From Flavobacteriaceae bacterium (lineage in GTDB: Bacteria > Bacteroidota > Bacteroidia > Flavobacteriales > Flavobacteriaceae), in contig JAMONN010000062.1 of the NCBI GenBank assembly GCA_027065775.1, positions 1 through 30,493 on the forward strand: a stretch of DNA of 30,493 nucleotides, in the 5' to 3' direction. A program made the translations under genes and the position numbers. The notes beneath the pieces are model-generated. The model did not search any database. It saw nothing but the letters and a program-made list of their open reading frames with translations, and had not been told where the DNA came from. Shown here one piece after another: positions 8,144-8,329 of this stretch (position 1 is the first letter of the stretch; each line of letters starts with the position of its first letter).

Positions 8144-8233
8144 TTAAAAATTTTGCAAGTATTTATTGTATATTTATTTTGATTATCAGCAGTTTAACTG
8201 AATAGCACTTCAAAAATAAGTAATATTTTTTTA

Positions 8234-8254
8234 TTGCGCAAAAAGATTGCGTAC
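8234..8254. promoter_or_regulatory. operator-like inverted repeat TTGCGCAA-aaaga-TTGCGTAc, copy 1
   Basis: Lies in the divergent WYL / RtcB-like intergenic region. A near-identical site (TTACGCAA-aaaga-TTGCGTAA) recurs at 11943-11963 with conserved flanks. Confidence 0.45.
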
Positions 8255-8298
8255 TAGTTTAGAAATATTTGCAATGTAAATAATTCAAAGTAGCTATT

Positions 8299-8329
8299 CC
8301 CTGAGGTTTATTGGACGAAAACATCAGGG
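8299..8329 (+). promoter_or_regulatory. conserved leader hairpin (11-bp stem, 1 mismatch), copy 1, 40 nt upstream of the RtcB-like start
   Basis: ccctgaggttt / attggacga / aaacatcaggg. The paralogous copy at 12007-12036 carries compensatory changes (C-G to T-A and a repaired pair). Confidence 0.45.

Follow-up and report, generated by a model that had tools for sequence, protein, structure and literature searches.

Two copies of an operator-promoter cassette with a leader hairpin at an RNA-repair locus of a Flavobacteriaceae bacterium, and their probable control by a DriD-like WYL protein

Two copies of one cassette in the window

The stretch of DNA considered here, the window, comprises 30,493 nucleotides from a Flavobacteriaceae bacterium (GenBank assembly GCA_027065775.1, contig JAMONN010000062.1). 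It carries two copies of an element of about 100 bp which we call the cassette: a palindrome, a promoter-type box and, further on, a hairpin. Copy 1 is placed between the gene of a WYL-WCX regulator and rtcB; copy 2 lies between a tRNA array and a non-coding RNA unit which leads into a Band-7 gene. We consider it probable, at roughly 0.7, that the two copies are paralogues, that both serve as WYL-dependent promoters with a transcribed, structured leader, and that an RNA-repair regulon is co-regulated through them. RtcB, a Band-7 protein and a probably tRNA-like non-coding RNA share the window, in a unit which is split by a ParE toxin pair and the tRNA array. The genes are as follows (ORF, open reading frame; wHTH, winged helix-turn-helix).

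6563-8143, minus: regulator gene, 526 aa, wHTH-linker-WYL-WCX (Pfam WYL and WCX), divergent from copy 1
8369-9796, plus: rtcB, RNA 3'-phosphate ligase of 475 aa, extended at its N-terminus (Pfam RtcB, NCBIfam), downstream of copy 1
9830-10355, minus: toxin gene of the ParE family preceded by a small ORF of 84 aa; the pair separates rtcB from the tRNA array
11093-11831: seven tRNA genes, the array preceding copy 2
12040-12736, plus: non-coding RNA unit, about 700 nt free of ORFs, downstream of copy 2
12737-13834, plus: gene of a Band-7/SPFH protein (Pfam Band_7), the end of the copy-2 unit

The cassettes themselves are composed of the following parts. The flanks were delimited from the sequence and a MAFFT alignment.

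8225-8233, plus: A/T-rich upstream flank of copy 1, kept in the 85-module consensus described below
8234-8254, plus: predicted operator of copy 1, TTGCGCAAAAAGATTGCGTAC, core 8237-8251 with CGCA at 8237-8240 and TGCG at 8248-8251
8264-8271, plus: -7-type box of copy 1, AATATTTG, 16 nt past the palindrome core
8299-8329, plus: leader hairpin of copy 1, arms CCCTGAGGTTT (8299-8309) and AAACATCAGGG (8319-8329), loop ATTGGACGA
11934-11942, plus: A/T-rich upstream flank of copy 2
11943-11963, plus: predicted operator of copy 2, TTACGCAAAAAGATTGCGTAA, core 11946-11960
11972-11979, plus: -7-type box of copy 2, GTTATTTG, 15 nt past the palindrome core
12006-12037, plus: leader hairpin of copy 2, arms TCTCTGATGTTT (12006-12017) and AAACATCAGAGA (12026-12037), loop AGTGGATG
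8211-8218, minus: candidate -7 box of the WYL gene, TATTTTTG, read from the sequence, 22 nt from the copy-1 palindrome

The regions 8225-8329 and 11934-12036 can be aligned by MAFFT, and their core is also listed by a repeat finder (as D10). When 8200-8345 is compared with the rest of the window by blastn, 8212-8327 matches 11923-12034 with 76.7% identity over 116 nt (E 3e-16), and the runner-up match has an E of 0.003. The 18-mer ACGCAAAAAGATTGCGTA, with up to three mismatches, occurs at two sites only, one in each copy, at an expectation of 0.08. By both measures the duplication is far above chance. An earlier note on this DNA, made from the letters alone, had described the two copies, and this description holds in its details. 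The palindrome is present in each copy and is perfect across 8+8 nt in copy 2. Each copy has its TTTG box. The distance from palindrome to hairpin is 45 nt in copy 1 and 44 nt in copy 2, and the two stems differ by one double change and by one mismatch that has become a pair.

The promoter consensus of Bacteroidota reportedly consists of TTTG at -33 and TAnnTTTG at -7. Judged by the position of the boxes, transcription is predicted to start at about 8277-8279 from copy 1 and at about 11985-11987 from copy 2. The minus-strand box at 8211-8218 would permit an autoregulation of the WYL gene. A scan of the window for sigma-70 promoters gave 20 sites versus 25 expected and is uninformative.

The cassette and its regulator across Bacteroidota

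A scan for the WYL family, with one genome per species, yielded 80 Bacteroidota loci, which are labelled here with L-numbers. In many of them WYL, Band-7 and RtcB genes are neighbours. Typically, the WYL gene is divergent from a non-coding stretch of 0.6-2.5 kb followed by Band-7 and RtcB, or it is divergent from RtcB directly. The cassette, i.e., CGCA-N7-TGCG plus TTTG, is present beside the WYL orthologues in 75 of the 80 loci, often two or three times per locus. Thus, the palindrome and spacing pattern noted in the window has many further copies in relatives. The general form is ctaCGCAAAwAGAyTGCGyAg, 15 nt, TTTG. Half-sites vary in places, as with GTGCG in Chitinophaga.

For a closer view a refined set of 89 modules was used, in which TTTG was imposed by the search and the flanking positions were not. 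In 85 modules TTTG follows the palindrome after 15 nt; in the other four, among them copy 1 and its clade, the gap is 16 nt. Positions which the search left free are conserved: T at -35 in 84 of 85 modules, A at -17 in 83 of 85, and likewise the A/T-rich upstream flank and TTTGtatcat. Within the -7 box the second position is A in 54 of 85 modules and the first T is not conserved. The A/T-rich centre of the palindrome reads AAAAGAy in both window copies and in the 89 modules. Its A-rich spacer is oriented toward the target gene in a constant manner (79:1); a reverse orientation, with TTTG 14 nt away and directed toward the WYL gene itself, is found in L014, L015, L027 and L076. At the position where a -33 element is expected, about 19 nt upstream of the -7 box, there is no TTG; positions -29 to -27 are AAA and belong to the operator.

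The genes that come right after the cassettes are variants of rtcB, Ro60 (TROVE + vWA), the 'RNA repair pathway' nucleotidyltransferase RlaP, a T4-type RNA ligase, and the unit of non-coding RNA and Band-7. Three cassettes are present in L005 and L008, two in L003, L010, L021 and L082. Two or three cassettes per locus are common; in using the cassette twice the window follows the rule of this system, which is the mark of a regulon. The earlier note had proposed that a promoter with operator is used twice and implies co-regulation; the conservation of the cassette before rtcB, the Band-7 unit and other RNA-repair genes strongly supports this. A scan of metagenomes with the pattern returned six contigs and gave one new hairpin variant (L094) and two modules with short leaders.

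In L005 (9958), L008 (9958) and L009 (9957), each on the minus strand, the cassette nearest to the WYL gene precedes a conserved ORF of 192-206 aa (MEALKxKIFDVLTEK…) without a match in Pfam. We regard it as a candidate, uncharacterised member of the regulon. L005 is from Flavivirga algicola and L009 from Algibacter lectus, both cultured relatives that possess the system.

The history of the two copies can be read from close relatives. In their promoter-proximal parts copy 1 is orthologous to the rtcB cassette of L081, and copy 2 to the RNA-unit cassette of L081. Because each copy has its own orthologue, the copies are old paralogues and not the product of a recent duplication. The gene order in L081 is that of the window (rtcB, tRNA array, cassette, RNA, Band-7), the order in L082 is RNA, Band-7, rtcB. 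By these orders the window shows a common locus after rearrangement, each part having kept its own cassette.

A short repeat which contains inverted repeats, with a toxin-antitoxin pair between its copies, might also derive from a mobile or miniature repeat element and have no regulatory link. We consider this most improbable: within 30 kb there are two copies only, target-site duplications and a transposase are absent, and throughout the phylum the cassette lies upstream of RNA-repair genes beside a WYL gene and at a fixed distance to the promoter box.

Pfam finds WYL and WCX domains in the regulator, and the profile of its family matches the WYL-WCX regions of DriD and PafBC. A phmmer search of the regulator against PDB sequences gave no match, and the link to DriD comes from the family profile and from a fold search. 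The AlphaFold model of the regulator has a predicted local distance difference test score (pLDDT) of 76. In the PDB its fold matches full-length DriD best, with about 350 columns aligned (Foldseek, E 3e-13); PafBC comes next, and then BrxR and CapW (ranks 34-44). The C-terminal domain matches the fold of GriE/EctD, i.e., of iron- and 2-oxoglutarate-dependent (Fe/2OG) dioxygenases. WYL homologues number thousands in Bacteroidota. Most have 573 aa, with a PhyH-type dioxygenase domain in which the HxD motif and the distal His are retained; many others have about 335 aa and are without this domain. In the window protein the C-terminal ~190 residues (coded within 6563-7130) have lost the HxD motif (WHQD), about 42 residues that the 573-aa homologues keep, and the distal His, as is the case in the closest relatives. 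Judged by these residues, the Fe/2OG-dioxygenase-like domain of the window protein appears to be a sensor or enzyme domain in decay.

DriD of Caulobacter crescentus has the consensus ATACGAC-N7-GTCGTAT with an A/T-rich centre (PMC10853764), and in all promoters under its control the DriD boxes overlap an absent -35 element at a fixed distance to the -10 element (PMC13004042). The likeness to the cassette is considerable. CG half-sites are 7 bp apart in both, with cTACGCA-N7-TGCGTAg here. In every target the site covers a missing element, -35 for DriD and -33 here, at a fixed distance from the -10 or the -7 box. In both cases a regulon comprises several promoters, and a site lies near the regulator's own gene. 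The differences concern the phylum and the promoter type, here the -7 TAnnTTTG of Bacteroidota; position 4 of the half-site, which is A here and C in DriD; and the regulon, which here consists of RNA-repair genes and in the case of DriD of DNA-damage genes. DriD senses single-stranded DNA (ssDNA). The regulator here usually has an extra C-terminal Fe/2OG-dioxygenase domain, degenerate in the window. Most likely, the WYL protein is the candidate regulator which would bind the palindrome.

Does it activate or repress? The WYL family includes repressors. CapW and BrxR, both among the fold matches, are wHTH-WYL-WCX proteins that repress from palindromes (PMC11662680). If the protein of the window acted like them, it would occlude the promoter and leave on damage; co-regulation would be kept, with the sign reversed. 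That the operator overlaps the promoter core region suits such a mode of action, as does the palindrome that in some loci also faces the regulator gene, a typical arrangement for autorepression. However, the top fold matches, DriD and then PafBC, are activators, all target promoters are without a -33 element, and the fixed spacing and orientation of the operator relative to the -7 box is a signature of activation by DriD that steric repression would not need. A repressor is thus possible and, in our estimate, rather unlikely. Activation is somewhat favoured over repression because the spacing of the half-sites, the A/T-rich centre and the fixed geometry are DriD-like and TTG is missing at -33.

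Several points weigh against an activated promoter and against the interpretation as a whole. The existence of repressors with palindromic operators in this family is one of them. In Bacteroidota promoters the -33 element is generally weak, and for this reason its absence is soft evidence for activation. The fit to TAnnTTTG at the specified positions is partial in both copies, 5/6 in copy 1 and 4/6 in copy 2. Finally, the loci are phylogenetically related, so that the counts of modules given above and the z-score statistics given below overstate independence.

The leader hairpin

The hairpin of copy 1 has 11 stem positions, 10 bp and one G.A mismatch, and folds with -10.6 kcal/mol (z -2.2; 41 nt). 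The hairpin of copy 2 has a 12-bp stem and -16.0 kcal/mol (z -4.7). Stem pair 2 shows a double change, with C-G in copy 1 against T-A in copy 2; at stem pair 7 the G.A mismatch of copy 1 is replaced by T-A in copy 2. The earlier note had taken these differences as covariation arguing for a selected structure. From the window copies the argument is thin, as a single double change between two copies is by itself weak evidence of covariation. Support for a selected stem comes from homologous loci, which keep the pairing.

In the contigs of the closest WYL homologues the same hairpin lies before rtcB in L081 and before the RNA units in L082 and L090. There the loop a(a/g/t)(g/t/a)TGGAyG(r) is kept while the stems change. 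A covariance model, R1, was built from five hairpin sequences and scores copy 1 with 48.7 bits and copy 2 with 45 bits. It found a sixth copy in L082 at 7899-7941 (E ~1e-6), before rtcB and behind a degenerate operator. L082 thus has two hairpin-bearing cassettes in an unsplit locus of WYL, RNA, Band-7 and rtcB, and the model search of relatives brought to light both a further hairpin and covariation in homologues. In the six-sequence alignment, which is a small sample and was fitted to the model, 85.5% of the cells are paired versus at most 57% when the partners are slid, 4 of 12 pairs show double changes, and the observed covariation score is reached by 13 of 500 shuffles. Pairs of U.G and G.U type in L081, L090, L004 and L008 fit a sense RNA.

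A second clade of Flavobacteriaceae (L001, L004, L005, L008, L009, L094) has unrelated stems, GCTCCACCAG and CTTACTAC, with loops ACgAgGAaG at the same place in the leader; the loops are similar in A..GGA.G. The hairpin of distant orders, 19-60 nt past TTTG, is rich in G+C and has a pyrimidine-rich 5' arm; in some loci TTTT comes after it. R1 does not reach the second clade or the distant lineages, and all its other matches have E>3. Because R1 misses them, the homology of these hairpins to that of the window rests on position and on the likeness of the loops. MAFFT/RNAalifold applied to eleven hairpins from both clades produced no consensus because the unrelated stems were misaligned. Long leaders taken together are significantly structured compared with shuffles. 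For their first 75 nt the mean z is -1.39, and 22 of 51 reach p<=0.05; short leaders, with a start codon within 50 nt, have a mean z of +0.36 and p<=0.05 in 0 of 32.

On the other side of the balance stand several observations. The hairpin is missing in L083-L087, in the RNA-unit cassette of L081, which is the orthologue of copy 2, and in all modules with short leaders. The hairpin of the L082 RNA unit is weak (-5.1 kcal/mol). About 15% of the cells in the six-sequence alignment are unpaired. The distance from TTTG ranges from 19 to 82 nt, which speaks against an obligatory role, and sense and antisense folding energies are alike in several hairpins. As short-leader modules and some lineages are without it, the hairpin is an optional add-on and not an obligatory part of the module. 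Of the structured leader claimed earlier for the cassette one part stands, i.e., it recurs in close relatives with compensated stems and a conserved loop; as a constant part of the cassette it does not stand.

The absence from several lineages, the similar energies of both strands and the one double change in the window would all suit a hairpin without function, a passenger or a DNA-level site whose copies are alike because the entire cassette was duplicated. This is unlikely in view of the comparisons. Both old paralogues retain the stem although each has its own orthologue in L081, six homologues stay paired through the 4 double changes, and G.U pairs suit the sense RNA only. Moreover, the tGGAyG loop is constant while the stems diverge, and in distant lineages this place in the leader is taken by stems that are unrelated.

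A leader attenuator or intrinsic terminator that gates read-through into rtcB and the RNA unit was suggested by a terminator scan, which flagged the copy-2 hairpin for its T-rich tail TTGTTTGATA, and by the loci of Sphingobacteriia type (L061, L064, L068, L072, L030), where TTTT follows the G+C-rich leader hairpin. Copy 1, with the tail CAAACCAAAT and no T tract, was not flagged. As the T-rich tail belongs to copy 2 only, a consistent terminator is not seen. The hairpins of Flavobacteriaceae homologues end in CTTAATAAAAG or ATCATAAAA, and close homologues are without a T tract. A conserved antiterminator pairing was not seen in these leaders, and a plain terminator is not expected to keep the sequence of its loop. 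We hold attenuation to be quite unlikely.

Taken together, the hairpin is moderately supported as a selected RNA stem-loop of the transcribed leader, optional for the cassette and restricted in its lineages, and its loop looks like a recognition site. The loops contain tGGAyG or AGGAAG. Those at 8310-8318 and 12018-12025 and in L004, L008 and L009 (tGGAyG, ACAAGGACG, ACACAGGAAG) bear what we take to be a resemblance to GGA-in-loop sites of CsrA/Rsm, a relationship which we do not claim. Rfam 15 gave no match over 8290-8335 and 12000-12040, even at E <=10, and none over the hairpins of related loci. A likeness to the sarcin-ricin loop (ACGAGAGGAC compared with ACGAGGAAG in L004) is a short match that lacks the flanking motifs and was treated as chance, as were short matches to 16S helix 45 and the decoding region, a tRNA minihelix and an anticodon loop. 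Two loops (ACGAGGAAG, ACGAGGGATG) are loosely like the sarcin-ricin loop, again without a claim on our part; the window loops ATTGGACGA and AGTGGATG do not share these likenesses.

We propose the following course of events. The cassette would be a promoter of Bacteroidota type with a TTTG at -7 and no -33 element, where the operator TACGCA-N7-TGCGTA (15-21 bp) takes the -33 position. A dimer of the divergently encoded DriD-like wHTH-WYL-WCX regulator would bind the palindrome, its WYL domain would sense a signal of nucleic-acid damage, and, activation being most likely, the protein would recruit RNA polymerase to otherwise weak promoters. rtcB via copy 1 and the tRNA-like RNA/Band-7 unit via copy 2 would be switched on jointly. 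A transcription start some 6-8 nt past TTTG would put the hairpin (about +21 to +52) within the 5' leader RNA. With its conserved purine-rich tGGAyG loop it would most likely act on the transcript, by way of stability, processing or protein binding, and not in promoter control. Regulator binding, transcription start, activation as opposed to repression, the ligand and the role of the hairpin are what we infer in this scheme; conservation of the sequence, spacing, neighbouring genes, the fold likeness of the regulator and covariation in the stem are what the comparisons show.

Control of RNA repair and the remainder of the locus

The known precedent is the control of the Salmonella rsr-yrlBA-rtcBA operon by RtcR and sigma-54, with a logic of induction by damaged RNA (PMC7790460). 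As in that system, a dedicated sensor-regulator is divergent from genes of RNA repair (RtcB, Ro60, tRNA-like Y RNAs). RtcR differs as a CARF-AAA+ enhancer-binding protein at a sigma-54 promoter, compared with a WYL protein and a housekeeping-type promoter here; moreover, several separate promoters take the place of one operon, and RtcA is absent from the window. Among ten ORFs scanned with Pfam there is no regulator of RtcR type, and the WYL protein is the only candidate transcription regulator. The sigma-54 element GG-N10-GC is not in the cassette, which has the TTTG box.

The other relatives of the regulator belong to the same protein superfamily; CapW and BrxR act on palindromic operators, and PafBC replaces -35 recognition. 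PafBC, however, is a mycobacterial activator which acts as a heterodimer on a non-palindromic motif, the repression by CapW and BrxR concerns single defence operons, and none of the three is linked to RtcB or Ro60. The association of Band-7, a tRNA-like RNA (b7a-tRNA) and RtcB was predicted by Burroughs and Aravind (2016), according to the account in bioRxiv 10.1101/312249. The genes are those of our loci: RtcB beside Band-7 and a tRNA-like non-coding RNA, in some cases also Ro60. Proteins and the tRNA-like RNA are the subjects of that work. It may mention WYL proteins, because a later paper of the same group refers to it on WYL domains and on 2',3'-cyclic ends. A literature search, which did not cover Burroughs and Aravind (2016), found no WYL-controlled RtcB/Ro60 regulon in Bacteroidota, no such operator cassette and no such leader hairpin. 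As far as the searches show, a DriD-type operator-promoter in another phylum and promoter type, on RNA-repair genes, is new, as is the unclassified leader RNA motif.

The WYL regulators understood so far (DriD, PafBC, CapW, BrxR) sense damage to DNA or an attack by phages, and for the control of RNA repair in bacteria the RtcR/sigma-54 system of Proteobacteria is the one case that is understood. The cassette provides a concrete operator and a multi-promoter regulon for a DriD-like WYL protein which apparently governs RNA-repair genes throughout Bacteroidota. It supplies a DNA probe for studies of binding and ligands, and it helps to predict members of the regulon, including the still unvalidated Band-7-associated tRNA-like RNAs and tRNA arrays. 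The cassettes are also natural reporters for the signal that induces RtcB, be it cleaved tRNA or rRNA, 2',3'-cyclic phosphate ends or ssDNA, and the leader hairpin is a new, small and conserved RNA motif.

One may go further. The cassette might serve as cis-element in an 'RNA-damage SOS' regulon that spans the Bacteroidota, with the leader hairpin as an active part of the circuit. A DriD-like WYL sensor, in many cases a fusion with an Fe/2OG dioxygenase, would induce RtcB, Ro60, RlaP, RNA ligases, Band-7/tRNA-like RNAs and even spare tRNA genes or arrays, and the hairpin could be a decoy or sensor substrate for ribotoxins, or the source or a competitor of an RNA ligand of the WYL domain. If true, this would establish a feedback between RNA damage, repair and transcription. 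As a joint proposition it is speculative and improbable.

The RNA unit at 12040-12736 contains the conserved box AGTTCTTTAAAATAT, small hairpins (e.g., 12098-12117) and three T-arm-like elements (12239-12255, ~12300-12316, ~12385-12396). Below threshold Rfam matches YrlA at 12285-12396 (35 bits) and tRNA at 12271-12322 (28.6 bits). The unit is conserved in L082, L083 and L086. It is probably a Band-7-associated tRNA-like RNA which looks more complex than a single tRNA mimic. A second conserved type of non-coding RNA (…CTTATAGCTTAAAAGGAAAAGCCTACGGTAAAAG… / …ACTAGCACAAAAGGAAGTGCTGCGGTAAAAG…), for which Rfam has no match, comes after WYL cassettes in several orders: in L081 at ~4400-4560 (minus), in L090 at ~20-160 (minus), and also in L021, L030, L057 and L062.

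tRNA genes recur at these loci. In L015 an array of eight (9061-9861; Asn, Leu, Arg, Pro, Lys, Gln, Asp, Tyr) begins some 50 nt past a WYL cassette. A single tRNA (Phe, Lys or Tyr) comes after the leader hairpin in L010 (9770-9843), L017 (9760-9834), L008 (7476-7559), L029 and L031. L081 has an array of ten (4617-5455), placed as the window array at 11093-11831. By this placement the tRNA genes appear to belong to the WYL-cassette system. They could be damage-inducible spares which replace species cut by anticodon nucleases.

Compared with L082, the part of the locus which holds the ParE pair is rearranged. Its 84-aa ORF, presumed to code for the antitoxin, has no Pfam match. Upstream of copy 1, GTTTaaCTGAATAGCACT (8193-8210) has a 12-mer in common with GTTTCTGAATAGCACT (12152-12169) inside the RNA unit; the rearrangement may have left a remnant of the RNA unit next to the WYL gene here, or the likeness may be chance. 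A good -7 box, TATATTTG, is located at 10893-10900, followed by a 35-codon ORF (10921-11028) and, directly before the first tRNA gene, by a terminator-like hairpin with a T run (~11052-11080). Over 10893-11081 there is a weak Phe-leader-like match in Rfam (29.6 bits, E 0.05), and this element may exert a control of the tRNA array in the style of a leader peptide.

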